This document shows, piece by piece, positions 3,241 to 63,287 of a stretch of 64,000 bases of DNA. Location: positions 1 to 64,000 of IMG/VR virus record IMGVR_UViG_3300033997_000035; one strand, written 5' to 3'. Origin of the DNA: a virus. The position numbers and the translations under genes were made by a program. The notes below the pieces were generated by a model. The model saw only the letters and a list, made by a program, of their open reading frames with translations. It had not been told where the DNA came from and searched no databases. Each line of letters begins with the position of its first letter. Within the stretch, counting starts at the first letter, position 1.

Positions 3241-3569
3241 GTTTATTAGTATACAACTCTCACACAGACTTATGTGCACGATATAAGGAGTTTGACATCA
3301 CAGAGTTGATTACAGACTCCACACCTCCTAAATTTGAAGGGGATGTATCGTTCATACTAGATACTTGTGTGAGATTGAAAGGGTTGAATAAGATTCACTC
3401 TGATAGGTATCGCAGCACTAAAGTGATTGACTTATCTTTAGGTAATGATATAGTGTTCTCACAGTATGACGCTGAGGGATATATTATTGTGACTAAATCT
3501 GTGCACTCGGATACAGTAGATGTTTTATTGAAGCGTTATAGTGTGCATGGTGTGTTGGTGGAGGTGTAA
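3237..3569 (+). CDS. hypothetical protein
   Basis: ATG 7 nt after AGGAG (3225-3229), overlaps the upstream stop (ATGA). Confidence 0.55.
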   Translation: MSLLVYNSHTDLCARYKEFDITELITDSTPPKFEGDVSFILDTCVRLKGLNKIHSDRYRSTKVIDLSLGNDIVFSQYDAEGYIIVTKSVHSDTVDVLLKRYSVHGVLVEV

Positions 3570-6246: not shown

Positions 6247-7305
6247 ATGAGTCCACAAACACAGAAATTAGAATTAGTGGCCTACCGTAGCAAGAAAGGG
6301 TTGTATTATGCAACCACCAAATGGAACTACCGTAGGGAACGTGAGAGCATCTATAATGTAGACACAGTGAACGGCAAACCTCTAACCAAGAGTGAACATC
6401 GCGATGACTGGTATTTCTTAGAAGGAGAGGACACAATCACGTCCATTAAGAAACGTGTCCACGGTGGCTATGGTGCAGCAGCTTGGGTGCTACGAGATGA
6501 CTCTACTTTCATCGAAGGTGTTATTCCTAAAGTAGTTACACCAGAAGATGCTGATGAAATTAAAGATAGCGACGGGGATTTCTACTTTGGTTCTGGTAGT
6601 AAGTATTACTCCTATCGTGGACTCTACAAACGTGTTCGCGAGGAACTACCTTACGTTTTTGTAGATGTGGAGTTTCAAGTAGACTACAAAGGGACTATTG
6701 AGCATAGCTTGATTGAAAACAATTACAAGGATGCTAAGATTACCTTAATCCAAGGTTCTGGTTGGACAGAGAAACCTACAGAGGCTAAACTATCCGATAT
6801 CACGCATTACTATGAACTAGAGGAGTTGTTGACACCAGATTTGGTTATCCACAATCGTCCTTGCTACATTGGTAGTGATACAACATTTGCTATCGTGCGT
6901 AACCATATCAAGAAGAATATCAACCCCAAGTATGCACGTGTGACTAGCGATTATAATTTCTGTTTCACTGTGAAGAAACGTGTGCAGATTAAGCCCTATG
7001 TTTACAAAACTGAAATTAAGAAAAGTAACGGGCGTAGTTACGCCAAACCACAATTCAAGTCTCAAACTATTGAAGCTAAGGAAGTGGAAATCTTCGAGAT
7101 GTGTCCTAGCAAGAAGTATCAAGACTACACACCAATTGCGGGATTCAAGGGTGAAAACTTGGCTGACTTGGTGGAGAACATTAAGCTATACTTAGACCAT
7201 CTTATGGATGTAATTAATGCACCTGTGCATGAGTGTGAGCATTGTGGTGGTTTGGGTTGCACAATTGAGAAGGTTGAATACATGAATGAACGTGGAGGTA
7301 AATAG
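6247..7305 (+). CDS. hypothetical protein with C-terminal CxxC cluster
   Basis: 352-aa ORF; C-terminal HECEHCGGLGC. Confidence 0.65.
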   Translation: MSPQTQKLELVAYRSKKGLYYATTKWNYRRERESIYNVDTVNGKPLTKSEHRDDWYFLEGEDTITSIKKRVHGGYGAAAWVLRDDSTFIEGVIPKVVTPEDADEIKDSDGDFYFGSGSKYYSYRGLYKRVREELPYVFVDVEFQVDYKGTIEHSLIENNYKDAKITLIQGSGWTEKPTEAKLSDITHYYELEELLTPDLVIHNRPCYIGSDTTFAIVRNHIKKNINPKYARVTSDYNFCFTVKKRVQIKPYVYKTEIKKSNGRSYAKPQFKSQTIEAKEVEIFEMCPSKKYQDYTPIAGFKGENLADLVENIKLYLDHLMDVINAPVHECEHCGGLGCTIEKVEYMNERGGK

Positions 7306-9897: not shown

Positions 9898-9929
9898 AAC
9901 CCCCATAGGGGCGATTCTGTGGGGTTTTA
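9898..9929 (+). terminator. candidate intrinsic terminator
   Basis: AACCCC...GGGGTT stem followed by TTTTA. Confidence 0.45.
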
Positions 9930-9948
9930 TCAACAACAAGGAGAAAAC

Positions 9949-10740
9949 ATGACAGATTTTAAGAATGATACTTTATGGCTAATGAAAGGCGATTGCTTAG
10001 AACGGATGAAAGAAATTCCTGACGGTAGTGTAGATATGATTCTTGCGGACGCTCCTTACGGCACGACTGCGTGTAAGTGGGATTCAATTATTCCACTTGA
10101 ACCTATGTGGGAACAGTTGAAGCGTATCATCAAGTATAATGGTGCTATTGTTATGACGGCGAGTCAGCCGTTTACAAGCGTTCTTTCATGTAGCAATTTA
10201 CCAATGCTTAAAGAATCTTTGGTATAGGAAAAGACCACTGCTACAGGTCATTTAAATGCAAAAAGTAAATTTATGAGGGCTCACGAAGATATTTTAGTTT
10301 TTTACTCAAAGCCACCGACTTATAACCCTCAAATGACGCACGGCCATGAAAGAAAAGTTGCGTTAAGAGTTGATAGAGCAGAAAAGCTTTCTGATTGCTA
10401 CGGAAATCAAAAAGGTGAAACTAGCTACGATTCAACATCTAGATATCCAAGAAGCGTTATCAAGACAAGCACTGATAAGCAAAAATCAAAACTACATCCT
10501 ACACAAAAGCCAGTCGCTCTAATGGAATACCTAATTAAGACCTACACTAACGAGGGTGAGACGGTTTTAGATTTTACGGCAGGAAGTTTTACGACAGGTG
10601 TAGCTTGTGTTAATCTTAATCGTAAGTTTATTGGAATAGAGATGGATAAAAGTTATTTCGATATTGGCGTGAACAGAATTAAGGAGCGCATTAAGTGCCT
10701 AGATTTAAAGATAGAACCAACGATAAGCATGGGAGACTAA
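9949..10740 (+). pseudogene. beta-class N6-adenine/N4-cytosine DNA methyltransferase interrupted by an in-frame TAG at 10225-10227
   Basis: Track ORFs 9919..10227 and 10273..10740 are in the same frame. Motif IV DMILADAPYG (DPPY-like) lies in the first half and motif I FTAGSFTTG in the second. The TAG sits where homologues have Trp (..LV*EKTTATG..). Confidence 0.8.
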
Positions 10741-10892
10741 CTGTTATATCTCACGCAGGCAAAGACCATAGGAATAAACATTTATGGCTTTGTTTGTGTG
10801 AGTGCGGAAATGAGAAGGTTGTTGTTTCTGATAATCTGTCCAGTGGAAAGACTAATAGTTGCGGATGCTTAAAGGCTGAGTTTTATAATTGA
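10695..10892 (+). CDS. small Cys-rich (zinc-ribbon-like) protein
   Basis: GRLTVI...WLCLCECG...SCGC pattern; overlaps the methyltransferase 3' end. Confidence 0.45.
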   Translation: MPRFKDRTNDKHGRLTVISHAGKDHRNKHLWLCLCECGNEKVVVSDNLSSGKTNSCGCLKAEFYN

Positions 10893-12650
10893 GTAAAGAG
10901 GGTTTATGAGTTCAATTTCTAAAGCTAGAATCCTCTCTAACACACCCTCCATTTAAACACCCTAGGAAGCTCTATAATGGGCTTCCACTCTACCCTATAC
11001 AAACACACTGCCAATCTATTATCCCCTCTCCTGATGCTTCCTATGAGCTTTAAACAACTATCTAACACATGGGTTAACCTCTAGTTTTATTTTAATTACC
11101 TCTCTAAACCAACATTTCTTATTATTACCCATATTTCACCTCAATTCCTTCCTTAGTGTTGTATAATAAAATACACTGTTCATAATATCAACAACGTGTT
11201 GTACTGTATCGTATCCACAATACAAACATCGCAATAGTGTATTATTGTATTGATACACTACCGTACATAATTGATATGTAAACCAATTCTTTTATATAAA
11301 CATTTTACTTTATATTATAGTTGCCCTAGCAACGCCCTTCTAAGTTTACTCCCAAAACTACCCCACCCCCGCCATAACGGGAAATAAAACATACCCCCTT
11401 TCCTGCAATTTAGCAGGAGAATAATATCATGTGGCATGGTTACATGCAGGATATCAATTTAAAGCTCCATAGAGCTATGCTAATAGACGTTTGCACCAGA
11501 TGTGGTGCGATGGTATTACATTGTCAGAAACATTCATCCTAGTGTGATATAGAGCGTTTGGTGAAGGGATATAAATTTTAGTGATGGTGTAATATTTATC
11601 CCTTCGGGATGGAATTAATATGTCGTCACTTTGTGACGAATTTATACATTTTCGATAGGAATAACACCCCCACCCCCAATTTTTGGGGTGAATATTGATA
11701 CCCCTGTTCCATAGGAACGAGATTGAATTAATGTGGGATATTACTGTCGCTACGTCTGAGGTATTAAGCAAGGCTGCTGCCAGCCTGTCTGATATTCTCT
11801 ATCTTGGTGTAATATCAAGGCCATCGGCCTAAGCCCTCCAATCCCTTGCTGTGCCTGAATTGGCACCAATAACCACACCTTTCATCTTAGATGAGAACCA
11901 TTATCATCTAACCGTTTTCTATACACTCGTATAACCTGATTTAAATAAGAATAATTCTTATTAGTGCCGTGTGCAGGCACAAACATATTACTATTCGATA
12001 ACGATAATCGTTATCACTTAGATTACTATTCAATACTGAATTTATGGTGTAATGATAATGATTATTATTAGTGTTATTATTTAATGTTGTGTCGAGTGAC
12101 GACACGTTAGGATATAAAATGGCTTGCATTGTGCAAGCAAGGCGAAGAGGGAAAAGATTGTTAAGCATTCCTTCGGCATACTTAACAATTCCCCACACTT
12201 ATCACTTCTCTCAACATTATCTAATCTATACGCAACATGCGTATGAAATTTAATCCTATATACCTACGGTATAACTAAGCATTCGTCCATCAGCTTACCA
12301 ACTTTACCCCACACTATTACTCTATGATGCTATGCATCAAACTATTCAATTCATACGCATGATGTGTATAACAATATAACCTTGCATACAATGTATGCCA
12401 TTACTCACTATCGTCTGACATTCTACTCATCACTGAACAATTACCTTATAAGATGCACTCGCATCTAAACAATAATCACTATCATTTGCATTTTGCAAAT
12501 AACATTAGAATTTTGTCATGTTATGACATAGATGGATATAATTTAAAGTTGGCATAGTGCTTGCTAGTGATTAGATTGTTGTGTGATGTGTATTATTTAA
12601 TAGTTGACAATAGTATAAAAGTGTGCCCTTGTTTTATTAGTTTATACAGC

Positions 12651-12728
12651 GACAAAATGTCGTATCGAGCATAATTAAGCAAATCAATAACTTAGTCATT
12701 TCTCGATATGACAAATTGTCGTATTGAG
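12651..12728. promoter_or_regulatory. iteron/operator pair GACAAAWTGTCGTATYGAG
   Basis: Two copies (12651-12669 and 12710-12728, 17/19 identical), 59 bp apart. The second overlaps the -35 of the RHH gene promoter. Confidence 0.5.
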
Positions 12729-12753
12729 TGAGATCAAGAGTTTATGGTAAAAT
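12724..12753 (+). promoter_or_regulatory. promoter TTGAGT-N18-TGgTAAAAT (extended -10)
   Basis: -35 at 12724-12729, -10 at 12748-12753 with TG at 12745-12746. Confidence 0.5.
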
Positions 12754-12800
12754 AGCATATAAACGATAATAGTTATCATTTACTTACAAAGGGCTTTAGG

Positions 12801-13007
12801 ATGCAATTAGACTTAAATTTGCCTAGGCATATGATAGACCAGCTCGATCAATTAAGCGGGGAGGCCCCTCTTAGGTCTTACATTAGGAAGATTTTACAAG
12901 ATCATATTTCTGGTAGCTGTGCTACTGTCCCCAATACTGACACAGGTATTAATACAAATGAAGATAAGAACCAAAGCACTGGACTTAGTAGAAGTTCACA
13001 AGGTTAA
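12801..13007 (+). CDS. ribbon-helix-helix (CopG/Arc-like) DNA-binding protein
   Basis: N-terminal MQLDLNLPRHMIDQLDQL...YIRKILQDH pattern typical of an RHH fold. Confidence 0.5.
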   Translation: MQLDLNLPRHMIDQLDQLSGEAPLRSYIRKILQDHISGSCATVPNTDTGINTNEDKNQSTGLSRSSQG

Positions 13008-13032
13008 CGCTGAAGAGGGGGCGCACTACTTT

Positions 13033-13488
13033 ATGATGCCTCAATACTTAACAAAGATTTCAACGGTAGAAAATAAAGATAATGGCTTGTGTGTTAAGCT
13101 AGATATAGAATGCTGGGCCATATACTCTTACTTATCTGCATATGGCTATGCCCACGGATATAATTCAATCTATCCAAATCAGGATCAGATAGGGATAGAC
13201 TTGGGTATGAATGTTCGTACTGTGCAACGCAAGATAGGGTTACTCAGTGAGGCTGGTTTTGTGTTAGTAACTAGGATGAAACTAGGCGGCAAGAAAGACA
13301 AGAATGTCTACCGCTTAAAAATCCCTAGGATGCTGCCACGGCTTAGGTATTTAGATATTATGGGGAATATTTTAGAAGGTAAACTCTATAAGTTTGATCC
13401 CAGCATATTCCACAAAGAGAAGTCTGCAAAAGGTAAAGATGTTACCTTTGAAATGATCCAAGCACTGAAGGGGCCAGAAACAAACTAG
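13033..13488 (+). CDS. winged-helix replication-initiator-like / HTH protein
   Basis: IYPNQDQIGIDLGMNVRTVQRKIGLLSEAGFVLV HTH motif. The start is chosen after the upstream stop, with GAAGAGGGG upstream. Confidence 0.5.
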   Translation: MMPQYLTKISTVENKDNGLCVKLDIECWAIYSYLSAYGYAHGYNSIYPNQDQIGIDLGMNVRTVQRKIGLLSEAGFVLVTRMKLGGKKDKNVYRLKIPRMLPRLRYLDIMGNILEGKLYKFDPSIFHKEKSAKGKDVTFEMIQALKGPETN

Positions 13489-31119: not shown

Positions 31120-31839
31120 ATGTCAGATACAACTAGCTTAGGTGATCGTATGAAAGAGTACGAGAGGGTTACCACCTCTCAGAAATTAATGTCTCGCACG
31201 CCTATTATCATTCGATTAGACGGTAAAGCTTTTCATACATATACTAAAGGTTGCAAAAAGCCTTATGACAGAGACTTACATGAAGTTCGTCAACACACGT
31301 TGATGTATTTATGCGAGAATATTCAAGGTGTAGTTTTTGGTTACTCTCAGTCGGATGAGCTGTCTCTGGTTTTAAAAGATTGGGACACTTTCCAAACGCA
31401 AGGTTGGTTTGATAACAAACTACAGAAGCTTTGCAGTGTTAGTGCCAGCATGTGCACAGCTTATTGGAATGAGAGGGTATTGACGGTGACCTACGGTTTG
31501 CATAATAAAGTGTCTGACGTGGCTATTTTTGATTCAAGGGTGTTTAACTTACCAAAAGAAGAAGTTGTTAACTATCTAGTTTGGAGACAACAAGATTGGG
31601 AACGTAACAGTGTCCAAATGTTAGCACAGAGTTTATATTCACATAAGGAACTCCAAGGGTTGTCATGTAAGCAACTTGTCACAAAGGTTGAAGAGGAACA
31701 CGATATTGTATGGGGTAATTTACCTACTCACCAGAAACGTGGGGAGTTTTGGATTCGAGGGGAAGGCTTAGTCGATACACCTATCTTCAAGGACTCTAGA
31801 CAAGAGTTAGAACAATTACTATACAAGCAAGGAGAATAA
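31120..31839 (+). CDS. Thg1-like protein (tRNA-His guanylyltransferase family, 3'-5' nucleotidyltransferase)
   Basis: IIRLDGKAFHTY, KPYDRDL, GYSQSDELSLVL and FDSRVFNLP..EVVNYLVWRQQDWERNS match the Thg1 signature blocks (VVRLDGRNFHRF, KPND, YGQSDEYSFVF, FDGRV...YLSWRQ.D...NN). Confidence 0.88.
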   Translation: MSDTTSLGDRMKEYERVTTSQKLMSRTPIIIRLDGKAFHTYTKGCKKPYDRDLHEVRQHTLMYLCENIQGVVFGYSQSDELSLVLKDWDTFQTQGWFDNKLQKLCSVSASMCTAYWNERVLTVTYGLHNKVSDVAIFDSRVFNLPKEEVVNYLVWRQQDWERNSVQMLAQSLYSHKELQGLSCKQLVTKVEEEHDIVWGNLPTHQKRGEFWIRGEGLVDTPIFKDSRQELEQLLYKQGE

Positions 31840-32861: not shown

Positions 32862-34754
32862 GTGAGTGAAAGAGAAAAGGGTGATTTTATTGGACATTTT
32901 CATTGTGTGGCAAATGAATTTGATAACAAGGACAGTTGCTCTAGTAGTGACGGTTTAGCTATTTACATGAAACTTGACGACTCCGACAATAAATACTTTG
33001 ACGGGTATTGTTGGGTGTGTCATCAAGCATTCCATAGAAATGAGATTAACAACAGTTCATTGGCTACTGAATTAGGTTTAGACCCGAATGGTGTGAGCGT
33101 AAAAGAGTTCACTGTGAAACCTAAAGAACTACCGTTGACAACTGAACATATTCAGGAATTGAAACAGAGTGTTGGGTTCACTGACAAACCATATAGGTCA
33201 TTAAAACCTGAATGGTTGCGACATTTTGGTTTTATGGTAAAGCGCGATTCGAACGGTAATCCGTTGCAGGTATATTATCCAGAGACTGAATCAAACAAAG
33301 TTACTGGGTTTAAAATCAGGGTTATTCCCAAGAACTTCAATAAGATTGGTCGAACTGGTCTGAGTAGTCAACTAGGTGGTCAATTCAGATACAAGTCACC
33401 AACTCGACGATTGTTGATATTAGGTTCTGAAAATGACGGTGTTGCTGCTTGGGGTATGTTAAAAGAATATTATGATGGTAAGGGGTATGGTGATTATGAA
33501 AACGTGCATGTAGTGTGGGGGACTTGTGGTGAAGGTAGTTTGTTTAAACAATGTTCTGCACAATATGATTTCATTGATGGGTATGAAGAAGTTTATATTG
33601 GTATGGATACTGACCATGCTGGTGATGAAGCACTTGCAAAGTGTTTGAAAGTTTTACCTGCTAACAAAGTTAAGATTTGCAAATGGACACTGAAAGACCC
33701 ACATGAAATGCTTGAAAAGGGTAGAACTGGTCAATTTATACGTGACTTCTTCAATGCGAAGGATTTTATTGATAGTGGTATTAAATCTGCCGCTGATGCT
33801 ATTTCAGAAGTTGAAGAGTTTTTAACTGCACCTAAAATCACATTACCTCCATACTTACATAAGTTACAGGAGAATATGAGAGGGGGTATTAAGTCAACTG
33901 GTGCCATTATTAATATCATCGGCGATACATCGATAGGAAAGTCGTTCTTCAGCGATAACTTAGAAATGCATTGGTTCTTCAACAGCCCATTGGTTCCTAC
34001 AATTATCAGCTTAGAACGCACCGCTGGTGAACTACTAACGGACATGTATTCTTTGTATCTGAAAAAGAACTTGACTTGGTTCAAAGATGGACATGACGCT
34101 GTTGAATATTTACATAAGCCCGAAGTAAAGGATTTATGTGAATATCTTGTCTATAATGAGGACGGCAAGAGTCGTTTCTATATCATTGATGAACGCGATG
34201 GTAGTATTACTACACTTAAAAAACAAGTGGATAAGGCTATTAAAAAGTATGGTAGTAAATTGATAGTATTTGACCCACTCACCGATTTCCTTCGATCTTT
34301 AGGTAATGAAGCACAGGAGGAATTCATGATGTATCAGAAGATGATGAAAAAGGATGGTATTGTATTTGTCAACGTATTACATACCCGTAAGCCCCCATCA
34401 TCAAAAGATGGAGATTTTAGAAAAGTTTCCGAGTATGAGGTATTAGGTAGTGGATCATTCATTCAAAGTAGTGATATTAACATTGTACTGAATCGCAATA
34501 AAATGGCTGAAGACCCAATCGAACGTAATACCACTATAGTAGATATGCCTAAATGTCGTGGTGGGGTTACAGGGGAGGCATGTAAACTTTATTATGATCA
34601 AGAAACTCGACAGCAGTATGATTTGGATGATTATTTTTCATCACCTAGGCAACAAAACCCTAATGTTAAAGAAGACGTTGTTAAAAATCCACTTTCTTCA
34701 CCTAATAACATAGTAACAGAGGATGAAAACGGTGTTGTTGAATCAACATTTTAA
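32862..34754 (+). CDS. bifunctional DNA primase-helicase (T7 gp4-like)
   Basis: N-terminal Cys/His zinc motif (HCV...CWVCH), Toprim DTDHAGDEA, Walker A IIGDTSIGKS, Walker B LIVFDPLTD. Confidence 0.8.
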   Translation: MSEREKGDFIGHFHCVANEFDNKDSCSSSDGLAIYMKLDDSDNKYFDGYCWVCHQAFHRNEINNSSLATELGLDPNGVSVKEFTVKPKELPLTTEHIQELKQSVGFTDKPYRSLKPEWLRHFGFMVKRDSNGNPLQVYYPETESNKVTGFKIRVIPKNFNKIGRTGLSSQLGGQFRYKSPTRRLLILGSENDGVAAWGMLKEYYDGKGYGDYENVHVVWGTCGEGSLFKQCSAQYDFIDGYEEVYIGMDTDHAGDEALAKCLKVLPANKVKICKWTLKDPHEMLEKGRTGQFIRDFFNAKDFIDSGIKSAADAISEVEEFLTAPKITLPPYLHKLQENMRGGIKSTGAIINIIGDTSIGKSFFSDNLEMHWFFNSPLVPTIISLERTAGELLTDMYSLYLKKNLTWFKDGHDAVEYLHKPEVKDLCEYLVYNEDGKSRFYIIDERDGSITTLKKQVDKAIKKYGSKLIVFDPLTDFLRSLGNEAQEEFMMYQKMMKKDGIVFVNVLHTRKPPSSKDGDFRKVSEYEVLGSGSFIQSSDINIVLNRNKMAEDPIERNTTIVDMPKCRGGVTGEACKLYYDQETRQQYDLDDYFSSPRQQNPNVKEDVVKNPLSSPNNIVTEDENGVVESTF

Positions 34755-37035: not shown

Positions 37036-37212
37036 ATGTATAGAACTTACGAAGAAATCTTGCAATCTATGATAGATGGTAAAACTACGTCTAGGAATGC
37101 AACACGTTATATTTACAATTACAAGAAACAGAAGAAATACGATCTTGCTGTTATGTGGTTTAGAGCTAAAATTGAATATGAGGAAGATTATGGAAGCGAA
37201 AAAGATACTTAA
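37036..37212 (+). CDS. hypothetical small protein (58 aa)
   Basis: AGGAG RBS; overlaps the start of the endonuclease gene. Confidence 0.4.
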   Translation: MYRTYEEILQSMIDGKTTSRNATRYIYNYKKQKKYDLAVMWFRAKIEYEEDYGSEKDT

Positions 37213-38458
37213 TAAAAGTGCAAAACAGTTACAGTTTATAGGCAGTTCATTTCATAAAGAAGGGTTAGGTGTGTTAACTGTTACAGACTCATACAATAAA
37301 GGTAATAATACTTTATTTTCTGTACACTGCTCTGTTTGTTCAAATGATTGTGAATTATTTCCTGAAAAAGAAATGCTAATAAGTAAGAATAATCTAAATC
37401 AAGGTAAGTACCCATGCAGGTGTTCTTCTGGTTGGAAACCTTCTAATTATCAGTATAAGGTGATGGTGCTGAGGTTCGCAAAACAAAATAAAGATGAGAT
37501 TTTAGATTTTGATGAAAATTCAAATATTAAGGTTCGCACTAAAGGGTTTAAGGATTGGCGTGTGTCCGCAAATGAATATCTGAATGGTAAACGCTCTCTA
37601 GGTGAAGCAATGTCTAATAAGATTACTAATCTAAGAAAACCAGATAACGTATACATAGATAGGTTTATGGGTGGCGGATCTTTCTTGGAAGGTACTAGGT
37701 TTTGGAGGTCTGATAAAAGAGATTCAAGGGGTTATTATTCTTACTGGAACTATATTTGTCCGTTATGCTCGCAAGATGAGTATGTTGAAAATAATCTATG
37801 TAGTGGTATTTTTACAGGAGCACTAAGTACGTTATCTGCTGGAAGTTTAGCCTGTAGGTGCTCTCAGAATTTTAAATGGTCACAGCAGCAAAGAGAGTAT
37901 CAACTTAAGAAGATACTTACTAGCGAGTCCTGCCAATTCACAGGCTGGTGTGGCAAATATTCTGGGGCGTTTTCGAAGTTTAATTGGATATGTAGTAAAG
38001 GTCACGAATGTTCCACTGAAGTTTCCAACTTTATACACCTTATGCACAGATGTAAAACTTGTTCTGAAAGTGTGTTCGGATTTTATCATGAGCGCTCCAA
38101 CGATAATGATTTTCTATACTTATTAAAGTTTTGTAACACTGATGAACTTTTCTATAAAATAGGTAGAACATTTAAACCAAAAGAGAGATTCAAATATTTC
38201 AGTGAATTCTATAACATAGATGTAGTATCTGTAGTAGAAGATTTGCATATCAATGTTTACCAAAAAGAAAAATATTTCAAGAAAGAACTCTCTCTTAGAG
38301 GTTATCATTATACTCCAAAAGAATCATTTGATGGTAGTGCTCAGGAATGTTTCACACAAAATATTCTTAATCATTCTGAAGTGGTTCATATTTTTGGTCT
38401 AAAGGAGTTTGAAAATGATCCAATCAGCCACACTACTAACCTATCTACCTCGCGGTAG
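37190..38458 (+). CDS. free-standing T5orf172/GIY-YIG-like homing endonuclease with repeated Cys-rich N-terminal modules
   Basis: C-terminal FLYLLKFCNTDELFYKIGRTFKPKERFKYF (T5orf172-type motif). The N-terminus has repeated C..C..C[RS]C modules. Located directly downstream of the polymerase terminator. Confidence 0.6.
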   Translation: MEAKKILNKSAKQLQFIGSSFHKEGLGVLTVTDSYNKGNNTLFSVHCSVCSNDCELFPEKEMLISKNNLNQGKYPCRCSSGWKPSNYQYKVMVLRFAKQNKDEILDFDENSNIKVRTKGFKDWRVSANEYLNGKRSLGEAMSNKITNLRKPDNVYIDRFMGGGSFLEGTRFWRSDKRDSRGYYSYWNYICPLCSQDEYVENNLCSGIFTGALSTLSAGSLACRCSQNFKWSQQQREYQLKKILTSESCQFTGWCGKYSGAFSKFNWICSKGHECSTEVSNFIHLMHRCKTCSESVFGFYHERSNDNDFLYLLKFCNTDELFYKIGRTFKPKERFKYFSEFYNIDVVSVVEDLHINVYQKEKYFKKELSLRGYHYTPKESFDGSAQECFTQNILNHSEVVHIFGLKEFENDPISHTTNLSTSR

Positions 38459-40486: not shown

Positions 40487-41587
40487 ATGTTATTATCACA
40501 TAAGGTCGAATTACGACCTTCTAAAGAACAAGAACAATATCTATTACAACTGTGTGGAACCACAAGGCACTTGTGGAATCAACTACTTCACTACTTTAGT
40601 AGTGGTGATGTTAAATGGAATAAGAAGACCGCTAGGGAAAAGATGTACTCTTTAAGGGAAGAATTCCCTTGGTACAATGACTACTCCGCTAACATCGTTA
40701 GATGTTCTATAGATAATCTTGATAATGCTTATAAGAGGTTCTTTAAAACTAAGAAAGGTTACCCTAAGTTTAAGAGTAAACATCAGAAGCGAAGCTTCAA
40801 TATCTATGAATCTCGGAAGTTTTCTGTAGTAGGTAGGGATTTTAGAATAGAGAAATTCAATAATTCTAAGAAATCTAAACCTATTAAGATGAGGGAGAAG
40901 CTACGCTTTGATGGCAAGGTAAAACAAGCTAATGTCTCTTTCCAGAATGGAAAGTGGTTTTGCTCTTTCTTAGTAGAGGTGGAAAACTACAAAAATATCT
41001 CTGGACAACACGGAAGTGTTGGTATTGATTTAGGTATCAAAGATTTAGCTACACTATCTGATGGAACTACGTTCCAAAAGAGTAACAAACTAACTCTAAG
41101 TCTGTATAAATTAGTTAAACTTCAAAAGAAGTTATCTAAGAAAAAGAAAGGTTCTAATCGTTATGCGAAAGCCAAGCTTTCGATTAGTAAGCTTCATTTT
41201 AGAATACGTAAACAACGTGAAGCGTTGCTTCACAATGTAAGCCATACAATTACATCTAAGTATAAAACTATCTGCTTAGAGGATCTGTCTGTTTCGTCTA
41301 TGACGAAGGGTAAGAATAAGAATTTGAATAGAATGATCTTAGATGTAGGTATGTATGGGTTTCGTAGGCAACTGGAGTATAAATCTTTCTTAAGAGGTGT
41401 TGACATCTACTTCGTGGATAGATATTATCCATCAAGTAAGATTCACAACGAATGTGGATTTAAGAACGATAACCTTAAACTAGGAGAATCTTCTTGGAAG
41501 TGTAATAACTGCGGTCAACTTGTTGACCGAGATTTAAATGCCTCTAAGAATATCCTTAAAGAAGGTTTGCGTTTAGCAAACAAGTAA
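40487..41587 (+). CDS. tnpB: TnpB (IS200/IS605-IS607 family OrfB, RNA-guided RuvC nuclease)
   Basis: N-terminal HKVELRPSKEQEQ. RuvC residues VGIDLGIKD, ICLEDLS and VDRDLNASKNI. C-terminal zinc-finger region. Confidence 0.9.
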   Translation: MLLSHKVELRPSKEQEQYLLQLCGTTRHLWNQLLHYFSSGDVKWNKKTAREKMYSLREEFPWYNDYSANIVRCSIDNLDNAYKRFFKTKKGYPKFKSKHQKRSFNIYESRKFSVVGRDFRIEKFNNSKKSKPIKMREKLRFDGKVKQANVSFQNGKWFCSFLVEVENYKNISGQHGSVGIDLGIKDLATLSDGTTFQKSNKLTLSLYKLVKLQKKLSKKKKGSNRYAKAKLSISKLHFRIRKQREALLHNVSHTITSKYKTICLEDLSVSSMTKGKNKNLNRMILDVGMYGFRRQLEYKSFLRGVDIYFVDRYYPSSKIHNECGFKNDNLKLGESSWKCNNCGQLVDRDLNASKNILKEGLRLANK

Positions 41588-52752: not shown

Positions 52753-55700
52753 TAGTTTTGCACCATTTTAATCTCTGATTGAATTGCGTCTTTGATTGAT
52801 GGATTCTGTGCAACAATCTCACCAACTTTCTGACCATCAATATTGACTGTCCCAGTAATGGATAGTTTGTTACCCATGAATTGACCAGCGTTAATAGCAC
52901 TACCCATACCACTTGCAACAAACCCACCAAGGTTACCTTTGCTGAACATATTCATCAATGACATCATCATACTGTCACCAACACTCATGTTTGAAGTATT
53001 GGCAGCACCAAGCATGTGTTGTGCTACGTTGGCACCAGTGTTATTGGCCGCACCTTTACGTGGATCATATAGCAAGCCAATCTTATTCTTACTGAATAGC
53101 AAGTTATCCAATTCCTCAGCCCAGAAAGCCACTTCCTTGATTAAGTCTAGAAGTATTACGAACTGACCTACCAGAGGGAGAGCCTTTAGTGCCTTGCTGC
53201 CGAACAGTTTATAGATGTAGAGTGCAGGGCCAGCCATTGCAACTAAGAAAGCGTAACTGTCTCCTAACCCCTTAGAGATACTATTCAATACCTCGCCTAC
53301 AGATACTAGCATAGGTGTTACCCATTTAACACCATCAGCAATTAAGCTGAACACTGACCCAATTATCTTACCAAGTGCTTCCCACAGTGGCTTGAGCTTA
53401 ACCACTGACTCAGCCATAGCATTGAATAACTCTGTCAAACCCTCACCGAAACCAGACTTGAATATAATATTACCAGCTTCTTGGAATGAGAACATCAATC
53501 TGTTCATTGCAACACGGTTAGATAACATGGCCTTATCCAGACCTCCGTTAGCACGTGCAGCCGCAGACATGTTACGAGCAAAGTGTGGTAATACCTTTTC
53601 AGATATTAGACCACCTTTCATCTGCAAGTCCATCATAGACTTTACAGTGCCGTCTACCGTAAGACCAGCATCCTGAGCAGACTTCGCCATGATTTGTCAT
53701 GTAGTTTAATGTGTTCGTTAAACACACCCATTTAATAGCTATATATTTTCATATATAGGTCGGACTATATCATCACCATTTAAGGTGCTAAACTTTTCGA
53801 TGCCACTTGGTCACCTACACCCTACGGGTTAGTCTCTGGACGAGGGTTGTACCTCGCTGCTGATCACCATATTAAAGGCTTCCAGCAATTAATTCAGTTA
53901 TTCGATATACATTTCTGTATAAAGCCACACAAATTTATGGCATTTGGCAAAACTTCCATTATTGTTTTATACAACCATCGTTAGTGGCTGTCCACCCTTT
54001 CAGGTGGTATCGGACTATATCTTCACATTTAGTATGTGATTACCTTTTCGACACACTTGTGCCTACACTATAAATAGCTAGTCTCTGGAGGATTCCCACC
54101 TGTTAGATGGAGTCATTTTATAATCCTTAGAAATCCATGTCCAAGTTGCACCACATCTTAAGTGTAGCAGTGCATCCTTAGTTATGTTGGTGTGCTTCCT
54201 AATATATTCATTATTCTTCCCATCTTGAATCATTTCACAAACTTTACGAATAAACTGCTCATCATAATCTGAGCCTCGTAGGTGTTTATGAGGTTGACCT
54301 TCAATGGAGTGCAAATTATTTTCGAGACTTGTAACCCATTCTAAATTAGAAACGTGGTCATTTGTCCTATCGAAATCTTTGTGGTTAATTACTAAGCCTT
54401 CTTCGTACGTATCTTGAAGATATGCTAGTCCAACCATTCTTGCACAACGTCGGTGGTAATATTTTCTATTTTTATAAAGATTAACCACCCTGTAACCATC
54501 TATGTTAAGTTGGCTTTTTATTGGATGACCTTTACTGTTAAAAATATTACCGCTCTCGTCTATAGTATAATTTGGAAACTCTTCTATGACTCTCATGTTA
54601 CCTCCTGTTAAGAAGGCAGTGGATATTCCCTGCGAATTACCATCATGCCTTGATATAAGTTTACCATCTTACATCATTTTGAACAAGCATTAAGGCTTCT
54701 CGCAATTAGATAATTTTATAATGGGCAAAGTTTACCCATTTGGAGCTTTAATTCCTCTAGTTAAATCAATGACTTACGTTACCAAGTCACTACATCAAAG
54801 TCTTTAGATGTAACCTACATTACTGTAGGGCTAGACCATATCATAACCTCTCAAGAGGTTTTCACTGTTTCGGCTCTACTTAGAACCTACACCTTATCAG
54901 GTTGGTCTTTGAAGGTTGCCACAAAGTGACCTTCCCTGCTGATTGTCCGTTTAAGGATGTCCCAGCAATTAAATGAATTATTGATAACTGTCACCAGTTA
55001 AAAGGCCAAGGGTTTAGCCGATACGACTCCTTTTGACATCCAATTTGTTAAGTAAATCAATGACTTACTCCGTGTTAAACACGCTCTATGTTACCATAGA
55101 AGTTCAGACTATATCTTAACCTTCAACTGAATGGTCAGGTCATTTACGCTTCGAGGTATAAACCTCTACATCCTTACGGATTAGTCTTTACACGTTCCTC
55201 TTTAGAGGCTTCGCTAGGTATTATCCTGCTAGGACGTCCACCTAATTCATAAATTTAATTATTCGTTATATTTCTATAACGCCAAACAATGATTTATTTG
55301 TTGTAAAGCGTTTACCTGTGGACTATATCTTAATCCCGAAGGATTCCTTATTTTCGAGGAGATTCCCCTACATTCTTACGAATTAGTCTCTGAAGGTGGT
55401 TACCTAGTAACCGTCCATGCTGATTGTCTAATTAGATTTCCCAGCAATTAACAAGGTTTTTCATTAATATTACTATTAAAGGAGCCATAAACGTTTAGCT
55501 CTAGTACTCTCCGCACTACTCAACCCCAGCAAAGTACTCATTTCTGAAACGGCACTGAAGGCTGCCTTCGTATCTTCCAGACTCATCTTCCCTCTGGCCG
55601 ATAACATCTTGGCAAAGTTCTTACCACTGTCTGCCAAACTCAACCCTAGTCGATACGACTCATCCCTGACAAATTGAAAGTTACTACCTGCTTCCTGAGC

Positions 55701-62032: not shown

Positions 62033-62230
62033 ATGTATTCACCAAAGCAATTCGCAGAGAAGATAGGAAAGAGTGTAAAAACCCTTCAACGTTGGGATAA
62101 TGAAGGTATTTTTAAGGCACATCGCACACCGACAAATCGAAGGTATTATACAGAAGAAGACTTGCAGATATATTTAAGCGGGGAGTTTAACAGTGTTATT
62201 AGCACACAAAATAGAGATAAGACCAACTAA
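62033..62230 (+). pseudogene. tnpA: IS607-type TnpA remnant (MerR-like HTH only; serine-recombinase catalytic domain missing)
   Basis: MYSPKQFAEKIGKSVKTLQRWDNEGIFKAHRTPTNRRYYTEEDL is the N-terminal HTH typical of IS607 TnpA. The ORF ends after 65 aa, overlapping the tnpB start. Confidence 0.6.
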
Positions 62231-63287
62231 GGAACAAGAACAATTCTTTGAACAAGCATGTGGGAGTTCTCGCCACCTGTGGAATAACTTAGTTGGACAT
62301 TTTTCCAATAAAGAAAACAAATTTTCTAAGAAGGCTGCAAGAAATTTATATTACAAGAGTCGTGAAGATTTTGAATGGTATAATGGCATCAGTGCTGAAA
62401 TTTTCCAGTCTACTATAGATAATTTAGAATCAGCTTTTAAGGGCTTCTTTAAATCGGGAAAGGGATTTCCTAAGTTTAAAAAGAAAGGGATTAAAGACTC
62501 CTTCCGTATTACACAATCCCTTAAATTTTCTATTATTGGAAGGGAACTTCGTCTTGAGAAGTTTAACAAGACTAAGAACACGAGACCTATCCTATTAAGA
62601 GAAAAGTTGAGATTTACAGGAAAAACTAAACAAGTAACTGTCAGTAAAACAGGCGGGAAGTGGTTTGCTTCGGTATTAGTGGAAGTTGAATCTGGATATA
62701 AACTTAAGCAACCTACATGTAAAAGTGTTGGTGTGGACTTAGGTATTAAAACACTGGTAACTACCTCTGAGGGAGAATCTATAGGTAAATCCAACAAATT
62801 ATCTATACAATTAGGTAAACTAGCTAAATTACAACAAAGACTTGCCAAACAAAAGAAAGGTAGTAATCGTAGAGCGAAAACCAAGCGTAAGATCAGTAAA
62901 CTACATTTCTATGTTGGGCAACAAAGAAAAGCATTGCTACACTGTGTAAGTGATAAACTTACTTCAGCATACAATGTAATATGTATGGAAGACTTAGATG
63001 TCAAAGGTATGATTGAGAAAGGGACTACTTCACTATCTCGGATGGTTTCTGATGTAGGTATGTATGAACTAAAACGACAGTGTATCTACAAGTCTTTCTT
63101 GCGTGGAGGAAGAGTATTATTTGTTGACCAATACTTCCCTTCAAGTAAAATGTGTTCATGTTGCGGTAATATCAAACAAGATTTAAAACTTTCAGATAGA
63201 GTATATACTTGCGATTGTGGTTTATCCATGAACAGGGATTTGAACGCTGCAAGAAATATCTTGATAGAAGGCTTGAAACAATTATAG
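62193..63287 (+). CDS. tnpB: TnpB (second copy, paralogue of 40487..41587)
   Basis: HKIEIRPTKEQEQ. RuvC residues VGVDLGIKT, ICMEDLD and MNRDLNAARNI. Zinc finger CSCCG...CDCG. GTG start. Confidence 0.9.
   Translation: MLLAHKIEIRPTKEQEQFFEQACGSSRHLWNNLVGHFSNKENKFSKKAARNLYYKSREDFEWYNGISAEIFQSTIDNLESAFKGFFKSGKGFPKFKKKGIKDSFRITQSLKFSIIGRELRLEKFNKTKNTRPILLREKLRFTGKTKQVTVSKTGGKWFASVLVEVESGYKLKQPTCKSVGVDLGIKTLVTTSEGESIGKSNKLSIQLGKLAKLQQRLAKQKKGSNRRAKTKRKISKLHFYVGQQRKALLHCVSDKLTSAYNVICMEDLDVKGMIEKGTTSLSRMVSDVGMYELKRQCIYKSFLRGGRVLFVDQYFPSSKMCSCCGNIKQDLKLSDRVYTCDCGLSMNRDLNAARNILIEGLKQL

Follow-up and report, generated by a model that had tools for sequence, protein, structure and literature searches.

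What purpose can 1.9 kb of phage DNA serve that encodes no protein and instead carries one short hairpin after another? This question is raised by positions 10893-12800 (plus-strand coordinates, as throughout) of a 64,000-nucleotide stretch of viral DNA, positions 1 to 64,000 of the IMG/VR record IMGVR_UViG_3300033997_000035, which is referred to here as the window. A first-pass annotation, made from the sequence without database searches, had described the tract as an array of many different hairpins and had considered a structured replication origin, a set of operator-like sites, a multi-hairpin RNA and hairpin-type promoters as possible roles. This interpretation is partly supported by our analysis, but it missed the context of a genome terminus with a direct terminal repeat (DTR). 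The tract very probably unites the terminal, concatemer-junction region of a phage with short DTRs and the region that controls the first operon of this phage. Its hairpins are a mixture that consists of a cut cassette, operator families, stem-loops following the motif TGGTGTAAT and a fast-evolving array.

The unusual density of hairpins is beyond doubt. A palindrome finder recovered all 14 hairpins that had been listed before, each in its place, and comparison with 500 dinucleotide-preserving shuffles revealed a strong excess: when arms of 6 bp or more and loops of 3-9 nt are required, there are 20 perfect inverted repeats, compared with 4.4 +/- 2.2 in the shuffles (maximum 12). The excess is also seen for loops of exactly 3 nt (11 vs. 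0.8) and for arms of at least 7 bp with loops of 3-4 nt (6 vs. 0.4). Elsewhere in the window, there are 0-5 inverted repeats per 1.9 kb, except at 40-43 kb, where a TnpB element resides, and at 53-55 kb, the location of group I introns. When ten related tracts were pooled, only spacers of 1-5 nt contributed to the excess, most of all those of 3 nt (43 palindromes vs. 6.3 expected); there was none at 0 nt or from 7 nt upwards. The proposed spacing of about 30 nt was borne out for neighbours, as 12 out of 47 gaps in five pooled phages measured 28-34 bp (null 3.0 +/- 1.6), but did not extend to a long-range phase, for which coherence was not significant (Rayleigh test, p about 0.3 in the window).

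Neither protein-coding genes nor any of the common structured elements account for the tract. Its longest open reading frames (ORFs) comprise 98 and 85 amino acids, are located on the minus strand and have no Pfam match. The 85-residue frame is of low complexity and there is no sign of selection at the protein level, because it differs from its counterpart in metagenome contig L041 at five of 60 residues with a DNA identity of about 94%, which is a non-coding pattern. About ten related tracts were compared in this study, and L041 is the only one close enough for base-by-base comparison. Two micro-ORFs following GGAATTAATATG and GAATTAATGTG were considered and dismissed; a 19-bp deletion in L041 takes the 3' end and the stop codon of the first. 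The tract is not a CRISPR array, as had been concluded from the lack of a repeat unit: Tandem Repeats Finder gives no tandem repeat at a score of at least 30, and families of direct repeats have merely two to three short copies each. Searches of the tract for tRNA and tmRNA were empty, and an Rfam search returned no family and a single chance match to a miRNA (E = 0.07). A simple set of terminators was rightly excluded, with no terminator-like site on the plus strand and most hairpins lacking a T-run, but the accompanying statement that U-tracts are absent is not strictly true, since four terminator-like sites are present on the minus strand (1.4 expected). The description of the hairpins as all different likewise needs qualification: the families GATGC-N3/4-GCATC, (C/T)GCA-N3-TGC(G/A) and GATAA..TTATC recur.

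The window encodes a tail sheath, a baseplate protein, a DNA ligase and a family-A DNA polymerase that is 71% identical to that of Rheinheimera Barba phages. At the DNA level, the sole match of the tract among GenBank phages is 83 bp long and lies close to the record ends of Shewanella phages 1/40 and 1/4. IMG/VR scans with two DNA patterns and two protein queries yielded nothing beyond these two Shewanella phages or chance matches, and a metagenome scan gave one short contig, identical to contig L026. The relatives are Vibrio and Shewanella myophages of ~130-140 kb and metagenome contigs, and we checked the locus in S4-7, F88, 1.161.O, VnaP, IBT_VpB-34 (IBT34), R16F, 1/40 and contigs L026 and L041. 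A common order emerged in which plus-strand genes, the last of which often encodes a methyltransferase or homing endonuclease, are followed by 1.5-2.5 kb of gene-free DNA, a small ORF, a gene for a winged-helix protein and many small genes on the minus strand. All nine relatives have a gene-free tract rather than ordinary genes at this place. Palindrome enrichment is clear in six of nine tracts (observed vs. expected: window 18 vs. 3.9, 1/40 17 vs. 4.8, R16F 17 vs. 4.0, VnaP 16 vs. 4.3, IBT34 14 vs. 3.3, S4-7 13 vs. 4.9), whereas L026, F88 and 1.161.O show it only weakly. Most of the enrichment falls between -300 and +400 relative to the right-hand cut site dealt with below.

The ends of two relatives provide the key to the tract. 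In GenBank, the sequence of Shewanella phage 1/40 begins and terminates with the same 381 bp, an exact repeat. Read in the direction of the window and with a slash for the cut, the inner boundary of this repeat reads ...AAACATTGTT/AAGCATTTCC, i.e., CATTGTT/AAGCATTT, and the outer one ...GCCATTA/AGCAACTGG. The record of Vibrio phage R16F has its junction at ...CTCAACTTGTT/AAGCATCCTT (equivalent to ...AACTTGTT/AAGCATCC, with ACTTGTT/AAGCATCC around the cut). The R16F junction and the boundary in 1/40 fall at the same step of the motif TTGTT/AAGCA, and the two records stem from different laboratories and different hosts. For R16F, fixed termini and a 353-bp DTR were determined by PhageTerm (PMC10152775), and the sequence ...GGTACTT/AACGTGAA (TACTT/AACGT) sits exactly 353 bp upstream of the junction. 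One copy of TTGTTAAGCA occurs in every related tract except that of IBT34, and the motif is conserved in all nine related tracts carrying it. A degenerate copy is found 347-399 bp upstream of TTGTT/AAGCA in the window, L026, 1/40, VnaP and R16F.

In the window, exact TTGTTAAGCA occurs once in 64 kb, at 12158-12167, and the boundary motif is identical to that of 1/40 and R16F. The presence of TTGTT/AAGCA at this site and of TTAAGCA at 11764, together with the ends of the relatives, therefore leads us to predict a 397-bp DTR (Table 1). In L041, the left TTAAGCA stands out as fully conserved in a stretch with only 47% identity; the repeat predicted there has a length of 396 bp, and the right two-thirds of the predicted DTR are 86-94% identical between the two. 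Immediately after the left cut motif, the window and 1/40 have a GC-rich palindrome, AGGCTGctgcCAGCCT, that L041 lacks. AT-rich stretches occur in the tract (e.g., 28% GC at 11900-12099). The spacer to the left of the predicted DTR is strongly G-poor on the plus strand (GC skew -0.41 to -0.55 over 10900-11400) and has 43% identical columns in comparison with L041 over 10957-11360. Despite these diverged surroundings, both arms of the hairpin at 10963-10986 are identical in L041, and its equivalent in R16F is a canonical terminator with a GC stem and a T-run.

On this basis, we consider the following layout probable: the right-arm operon ends at 10892 and is followed by the G-poor spacer, the repeat bounded by TT/AAGCA, a 340-bp string of palindromes immediately within the left genome end, and the promoters and operators of the first operon, which comprises the small ORF and the winged-helix gene. 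The terminase would recognize and cut TTAAGCA sites in replicated concatemers, and the repeat would be duplicated. After infection, host RNA polymerase would start rightward from promoters in or beside the repeat, and the array would act via local hairpins on one strand, either as DNA or as nascent RNA. The explanation as a whole, i.e., a genome-end and early-control region of a myophage with a linear genome and short DTRs that works in the way just outlined, is in our judgment likely, with less certainty than the assignment to a terminus and control region as such.

No part of the tract is less conserved than the string of palindromes directly to the right of the cut (12190-12530). It aligns with L041 with many indels and with identity in only 36% of the columns, compared with 90-94% in the flanks. 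Hairpins are nevertheless present in this part of L041, and some modules are the same in changed order (GATGCtatGCATC, AGATGC..GCATCT, ACGCA..TGCGT and TTTGC..GCAAA). When stems were checked for conservation and covariation, pairing was found to be kept through change where the alignment is reliable, but several palindromes are imperfect or lost in L041. Compensatory changes from the window to L041 convert the arms GCACCA and TGGTGC into ACACCA and TGGTGT, and the arms ATACGCA and TGCGTAT into AGACGCA and TGCGTCT; a further stem changes from TCGTCAC..GTGACGA to TGTCAC..GTGACA. With about ten tracts and a single close relative, this evidence for covariation is anecdotal. Whole palindromes are exchanged as well. 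GTGCCgtgtgcaGGCAC (GTGCC..GGCAC) is swapped in place for the unrelated palindrome AGACGCAttgTGCGTCT in L041, and immediately to the left of the cut, each of four phages has palindromes of its own at corresponding alignment positions: GTGTCG..CGACAC and GCTTGCA..TGCAAGC in the window, TTGTAC..GTACAA and GATGC..GCATC in L026, GTGCATA..TATGCAC in 1/40 and GTCAC..GTGAC in S4-7.

What does not change is the composition of the DNA between the stems. The linkers of the array contain 6% G on the plus strand of the window (skew -0.60), and their G content is similarly low in relatives with unrelated linker sequences (L026 4%, S4-7 5%, L041 7%, 1/40 8%). Linkers inside the predicted repeat of the window have no such skew. 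The hairpin loops avoid G, too (3 G in ~40 nt), and the overall base composition of the loops is close to the tract background. As the plus-strand linkers avoid G, only the palindromes can form G-C pairs, and the array resembles beads on a string. A second strand-specific feature resides in the loops of R16F, VnaP and IBT34. Nearly all triloops in this clade, seven per tract, have the form C-TNC-G on the plus strand, corresponding to C-GNA-G on the minus strand, while the opposite sense occurs 0-1 times, and C-GNA-G loops are about absent from the flanking 7 kb in this clade. Several of these hairpins in the three tracts are exact mini-hairpin motifs (GCGAAGC, GCGGAGC or GCGTAGC). The window itself has only two C-GNA-G hairpins, both on the minus strand, CCGAAGG (11598-11610) and CCGTAGG (12259-12273).

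In summary, pairing, short spacers and spacing are kept in the array and a strand-specific rule governs its composition, whereas the primary sequence is free to change. This pattern argues against sequence-specific operators as the whole story, and the strand asymmetries argue against a purely neutral by-product.

A number of points weigh against our interpretation of the tract. The DTR is derived from relatives that share only 60-70% DNA identity here, and a repeat at these very coordinates is a prediction by homology. An assembly overlap could account for the 381-bp repeat of 1/40 if it stood alone; the repeat gains credibility because its boundary coincides with the end of R16F. The records 184E37.1, 1.193.O and 1.084.O break ~150 bp upstream of the motif, within the predicted repeat; 184E37.1 has a 55-bp assembler overlap, and the cut site gains no independent support from the ends of these three records. 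The cut cassette of VnaP is located ~110 bp further along the same series of hairpins than in R16F, and array and cut site must therefore be regarded as neighbours rather than as one fixed unit. The palindromes at 11401, at 11771, at 11887 (outer) and at 11944 are imperfect or lost in L041, and any part that the array might play in packaging, entry or transcription is conjecture. Finally, one loop is inverted between the window and L041 (CCCCAAtttTTGGGG to CCCCAAaaaTTGGGG, ttt to aaa, 11674-11688), which fits a purely mutational origin of perfect palindromes by template switching.

Homogenization of arms and inversion of spacers are known products of template switching (PMC8604942), and the array could in principle have no function of its own and be produced by this process at quasi-palindromes in unconstrained DNA close to recombinogenic ends. 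The clear spacer inversion, the hypervariability and rearrangement of the array, the decay of several palindromes in relatives and the restriction of the enrichment to short spacers would all be explained. However, the trait persists from Shewanella to Vibrio phages, the G-poor left flank belongs to the same unconstrained tract and holds few palindromes, and neighbouring palindromes prefer a spacing of ~30 bp. Moreover, the G depletion of the linkers and the TNC/GNA bias of the loops are strand-specific and conserved, which symmetric mutation does not predict. We therefore regard an origin as a mere by-product as rather improbable.

The array might be transcribed, as a leader or non-coding RNA starting from TGGTGTAAT promoters, with about ten local hairpins joined by linkers of C, A and U. 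Such an RNA could possibly serve as a Rho-loading insulator at the junction, as a stabilizing or anti-backtracking leader of the first operon or as a protein sponge. RNA that is rich in C and poor in G is the accepted signature of Rho entry sites. The avoidance of G in unpaired plus-strand positions, which holds in L026, 1/40, S4-7 and L041 despite sequence turnover, and the G-poor loops agree with a leader, as do the predicted RNA folding (z = -4.8 for the plus and -2.2 for the minus strand relative to shuffles) and the three plus-strand TGGTGTAAT motifs upstream, two of which are conserved in L041. On the other hand, wobble pairs (G.T/G.U) show no asymmetry between the strands (15 vs. 13), an Rfam family is lacking, some spacers of 0-2 nt could not be closed as RNA loops without losing pairs, the C-TNC-G loops of the R16F clade are stable (as GNA form) only on the opposite DNA strand, and TGGTGTAAT is not clearly kept in L026 or 1/40. 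A transcribed leader is a minority option. With no wobble bias, a plus-strand fold and minus-strand GNA loops, the evidence does not separate action of the array as DNA from action as RNA.

The GNA loops direct attention to single-stranded DNA (ssDNA). Hairpins of the C-GNA-G type have been reported at the priming sites of G4 and ssiA and at the promoters of N4 (PMC13037366). In the style of G4 oric and RSF1010 ssiA/ssiB, the tract might be a replication origin or ssDNA initiation zone that is served by the winged-helix protein as initiator and whose hairpins, once exposed by melting, exclude single-stranded DNA-binding protein (SSB) and recruit the primase-helicase of the phage. In line with this, the winged-helix protein encoded next to the tract has weak matches to replication-initiator PHROGs (6.5e-5 to 3e-3) and to HTH_36 (E = 7.6e-4, below the Pfam cutoff), the seven C-GNA-G mini-hairpins per tract are present in R16F, VnaP and IBT34, and a gp4-like helicase with a DnaB_C domain and the PHROG annotation 'DNA primase/helicase' is encoded at 32862-34754. 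In addition, an oriented repeat, AAATATC, occurs four to seven times per tract (0.3-0.5 expected), nearly always on one strand and 550-900 bp left of the cut motif, in S4-7, R16F, F88, 1.161.O, VnaP and IBT34 (loci L002, L030, L003, L037, L038 and L036, respectively), and these iterons in the left flank of Vibrio phage tracts would suit an origin. The repeat is a candidate binding array for the small terminase subunit or for an initiator.

Several findings speak against an origin. The window has no AAATATC iterons and only two GNA hairpins, and a cluster of DnaA boxes is absent from every tract examined (two TTATCCACA sites with one mismatch each in the tract of the window, 0-2 in each relative). 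The winged-helix protein is short with its 176 amino acids and matches generic winged-helix families below their cutoffs; a search of PDB sequences with its family profile gave only insignificant matches of the same generic kind, and its AlphaFold model is of low confidence (pLDDT 46.6). The array that would serve for priming is, moreover, where conservation of the tract is lowest. An origin must be viewed as doubtful.

The same loops invite a comparison with N4-type promoters, i.e., hairpins that are extruded on the template strand by supercoiling and read by an RNA polymerase carried in the virion. The geometry resembles that of N4, with a terminal repeat of ~400 bp and hairpins within the first kilobase, and the seven C:G-closed 5'G..A3' triloops per tract in R16F, VnaP and IBT34 lie on the strand that would be the template for rightward transcription. 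The proposal is not supported in the window, however. Such a loop is found in only two of ~20 hairpins, a conserved block from -17 to +1 around the hairpins was not seen by eye (no formal motif search was made), and about ten 'promoters' in 340 bp would have no genes behind them. A giant RNA polymerase ORF is absent from the 64 kb, the largest ORF of which is that of the DNA polymerase with 735 amino acids. The phages are contractile-tailed, as evident from the tail sheath, and the text of the R16F paper never mentions 'RNA polymerase' (PMC10152775). We consider N4-type promoters scarcely conceivable here.

Our preferred reading of the tract as genome end and early-control region includes promoters and operators, and candidates for both are present. 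The exact motif TGGTGTAAT, which resembles an extended -10 element, has five copies in 64 kb; three of these reside in the tract, all on the plus strand. The best sigma-70-like promoter is located at the right border of the array, and from this point on (12513-12800), the sequence is about 90% identical to L041 and L027. Fur-box-like palindromes of the type TGATAAT-N-ATTATCA form an operator-like family. Allowing up to two mismatches, there are 11 sites in the window as opposed to 0.77 expected (11892, 12002, 12053, 12764, 20169, 21768, 26042/26045, 28457, 32110 and 40720), four of them in the tract, and exact 7-1-7 copies are also present in the tracts of 1/40, 1.161.O and VnaP. This palindrome could be a site for host Fur, which would place early genes under iron control, or the operator of a phage repressor. 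GATGC-N3/4-GCATC is restricted to the tract within the window (two sites vs. 0.07 expected). As a side observation made by eye only, LexA-box-like CTGT-N8-ACAG sequences (e.g., CTGTATATATTTACAG) are found in L026 at about 3355-3475, in the left flank of the related tract.

Could all the palindromes be duplex operators, bound cooperatively at a distance of three helical turns by a few dimeric regulators such as the ribbon-helix-helix (RHH)-like protein, the winged-helix protein, host Fur and others? Half-site families do recur in distant relatives (GATGC in five tracts, GTCAC in three, and TGATAAT-N-ATTATCA), the spacing of about 30-33 bp is suitable, wobble pairs lack strand asymmetry, loop composition is near the tract background, and several of the Fur-like boxes beyond the tract fall in the early-gene region (20169, 21768, 26042 and 28457). 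However, at least eight different half-sites would be required within 400 bp of one phage, unrelated palindromes substitute for each other at the same place in close relatives, and the strand-specific G depletion of the linkers would be meaningless for duplex binding, as would the strand bias of the GNA loops in the R16F clade. The operator role that had been suggested earlier is supported only for a subset (TGATAAT-N-ATTATCA, GATGC-N3-GCATC and the GACAAAWTGTCGTATYGAG repeats); as an explanation for the array in general, operators are improbable.

Weighing these arguments, we rank the possible modes of action of the array as follows. A structural element with a function at the genome end (in junction processing, in protection or at the entering end) comes first, followed by a transcribed leader (as Rho insulator or elongation aid), priming or an origin, operators, and a mutational by-product; N4-type promoters come last and are essentially excluded here. 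There is a small chance that the array constitutes a new kind of cis element, in which strand-specific hairpins at ~30-nt spacing and G-free unpaired positions are conserved while the sequence turns over rapidly. It may be an untranslated leader whose nascent hairpins and G-free linkers prevent pausing and backtracking of host RNA polymerase while the polymerase, having started at promoters within the terminal repeat, reels the genome in. Alternatively, it may be an ssDNA zone, on the 3'-ending strand where the DNA enters, that is closed to SSB and recombinase or protected from exonucleases. We know of no described counterpart to a G-depleted, hypervariable hairpin array. The coordinates of all features are compiled in Table 1.

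Table 1. Features of the hairpin-rich tract and of the adjoining genes in the window. The cut is indicated by a slash; the strand is left empty for features without orientation.
Feature	Position	Strand	Remarks
Non-coding spacer on the right-arm side of the predicted DTR	10893-11765	+	Follows the last plus-strand ORF (HNH fragment, 10695-10892)
Hairpin GGAAGC-N10-GCTTCC	10963-10986	+	Candidate end-of-operon terminator, without T-run
TGGTGTAAT motif, then hairpin ATCCCttcGGGAT (11598-11610)	11585-11610	+	Repeat family D4; hairpin identical in L041
TTAAGCA, predicted left DTR boundary	11764-11770	+	Predicted cut TT/AAGCA between 11765 and 11766
Predicted 397-bp DTR	11766-12162		Predicted by homology with 1/40 and R16F
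Second TGGTGTAAT motif, then hairpin AGGCCatcGGCCT (11818-11830)	11805-11830	+	Inside predicted DTR; repeat family D4; same stem in L041, loop aat
Three Fur-box-like palindromes TGATAAT-N-ATTATCA	11892-11906, 12002-12016, 12053-12067		Within predicted DTR
Third TGGTGTAAT motif	12045-12053	+	Inside predicted DTR; overlapped by Fur-box-like palindrome 12053-12067
Right cut cassette, TTGTT/AAGCA and inverted partner TACTTAACAA (12179-12188)	12158-12188		31-bp imperfect palindrome; predicted cut between 12162 and 12163
Beads-on-a-string array of nine palindromes	12190-12530	+	Arms 6-7, loops 3-4; neighbour spacing ~30 or 60 bp
Best sigma-70-like promoter, TTGTCA-18-TATAAT	12513-12542	+	11/12 consensus positions; -35 inside hairpin TGTCATgttATGACA
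First-operon control region	12651-12778	+	Conserved in L041 and L027
Direct repeats GACAAAWTGTCGTATYGAG	12651-12669, 12710-12728	+	Two copies
Promoter TTGAGT-18-TAAAAT with TG (extended -10)	12724-12753	+	Second promoter of the control region
Palindrome CGATAATAGTTATCA	12764-12778	+	Fur-like; in control region of first operon
68-amino acid ORF	12801-13007	+	First gene after the tract; RHH-like by eye; no Pfam/PHROG match
Winged-helix DNA-binding protein	12958-13488	+	176 amino acids from ATG 12958; syntenic marker of the tract

The first gene downstream of the tract has homologues at the same position in the relatives, and its product may be RHH-like, as far as the sequence can be read by eye. 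Homologues of the winged-helix protein, which matches phrog_22534 (2.6e-17), adjoin the same kind of tract in Vibrio phages of ~130-140 kb. On the opposite side, a DNA methyltransferase is apparently present in pieces (9919-10227, 10273-10740 and 10695-10892, all on the plus strand): an N-terminal ORF with weak resemblance to a methyltransferase, a separate ORF matching only positions 96-219 of N6_N4_Mtase and an overlapping 65-amino acid HNH endonuclease fragment, after which the tract begins. Because relatives often have a full homing endonuclease there, the junction beside the tract looks like a hot spot for mobile elements. Further upstream, a protein of 352 amino acids (6247-7305, +) matches the Pfam family Gad1, a Gabija anti-defence protein (E = 1.6e-91), and has a homologous ORF in L041.

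Mobile elements are also found elsewhere in the window. Three group I introns above the Rfam gathering score (68-71 bits) are located on the minus strand within 1.6 kb (53740-53946, 54813-55025 and 55084-55301), with an HNH_3 endonuclease ORF between them (54078-54596). Two ORFs of the TnpB type (OrfB_IS605, Cas12f1-like TNB and HTH_OrfB_IS605; 40487-41587 and 62193-63287, both +) reside in this myophage, which looks lytic. A second zone rich in palindromes, with 16 inverted repeats per 1.9 kb at 40-43 kb, coincides with the first of these ORFs and may include the element ends or the guide RNA of TnpB. Unusual cargo for a phage is represented by a Thg1-like tRNA-His guanylyltransferase homologue (31120-31839, +) and a protein with three CapR homology domains (37076-38458, +).

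For the poorly studied marine Vibrio and Shewanella myophages of ~130-140 kb, our analysis provides a testable map of the genome end with the conserved motif TT/AAGCA, a predicted repeat of ~0.4 kb, and the promoters and operators of the first operon. Sequences of such genomes currently start at arbitrary positions, and the map helps to orient and annotate them. A hint that early genes of marine phages are controlled in an iron-dependent manner comes from the near-perfect Fur-box-like operators, which recur. The array adds a 340-bp element that keeps structure, spacing and strand-specific avoidance of G and discards sequence; if functional, it bears on the protection, transcription or uptake of linear phage DNA in the first minutes of infection.

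How does the tract compare with known systems? In phage N4, there are three promoters with a conserved sequence from -17 to +1 that are used by a dedicated polymerase of 3,500 amino acids, a C:G-closed 5'G..A3' triloop is required for extrusion of the promoter hairpin, and the leftmost DNA, which bears all promoters for the virion RNA polymerase, enters first (PMC4496689). Short stems, of 5-7 bp in N4, and 3-nt loops near the genome end are common to both, as are C-GNA-G loops on the would-be template strand in the R16F clade. In contrast, the 10-20 hairpins here share no visible flank and precede no genes, and the window does not encode such a polymerase. Mini-hairpins of the GNA class are unusually stable, resist nucleases and SSB and have been reported at priming sites (PMC13037366). 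The exact mini-hairpin motifs in R16F, VnaP and IBT34 link the tracts to G4 oric and RSF1010 ssiA/ssiB. However, the known single-strand initiation sites consist of one or two specific hairpins beside iterons, whereas an array is present here and most loops in the window are not of the GNA type.

Two repeated units (11585-11610 and 11805-11830) consist of a host-type promoter motif with a stem-loop right behind it and lie where the order of elements is shuffled from one relative to the next; they are reminiscent of the promoter-early stem-loop (PeSL) elements of T4-type phages. PeSLs lie beside small early genes and are credited with promoting the shuffling of genes, whereas no genes are located between the units here. 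Among described systems, the nearest analogue is the injection stop signal (iss) region in the left terminal repeat of phage T5 and its relatives, which is untranslated, rich in palindromes and repeats, gene-free and situated at a genome end, just as the tract is if the predicted terminus is accepted. Eight DnaA boxes in a set order are the defining feature in T5, and a clustered series of this kind is missing from the tract. The terminal repeat of T5 comprises ~10 kb and carries genes; the repeat predicted here has ~0.4 kb and is about 25 times shorter. To our knowledge, two-step injection has not been described for this phage group.

T7 and T3 have a short exact terminal repeat, fixed ends and inward-facing promoters for the host polymerase in the first kilobase. 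A palindrome beside the repeat is implicated in the processing of their concatemers via a hairpin-ended intermediate. We are not aware of any description of a dense, fast-evolving palindrome array with G-depleted linkers in T7-like phages, and the phage studied here differs further in being a myophage of ~130-140 kb with the unrelated cut motif TT/AAGCA. The general plan that we predict for its genome end resembles that of T7 and T3.

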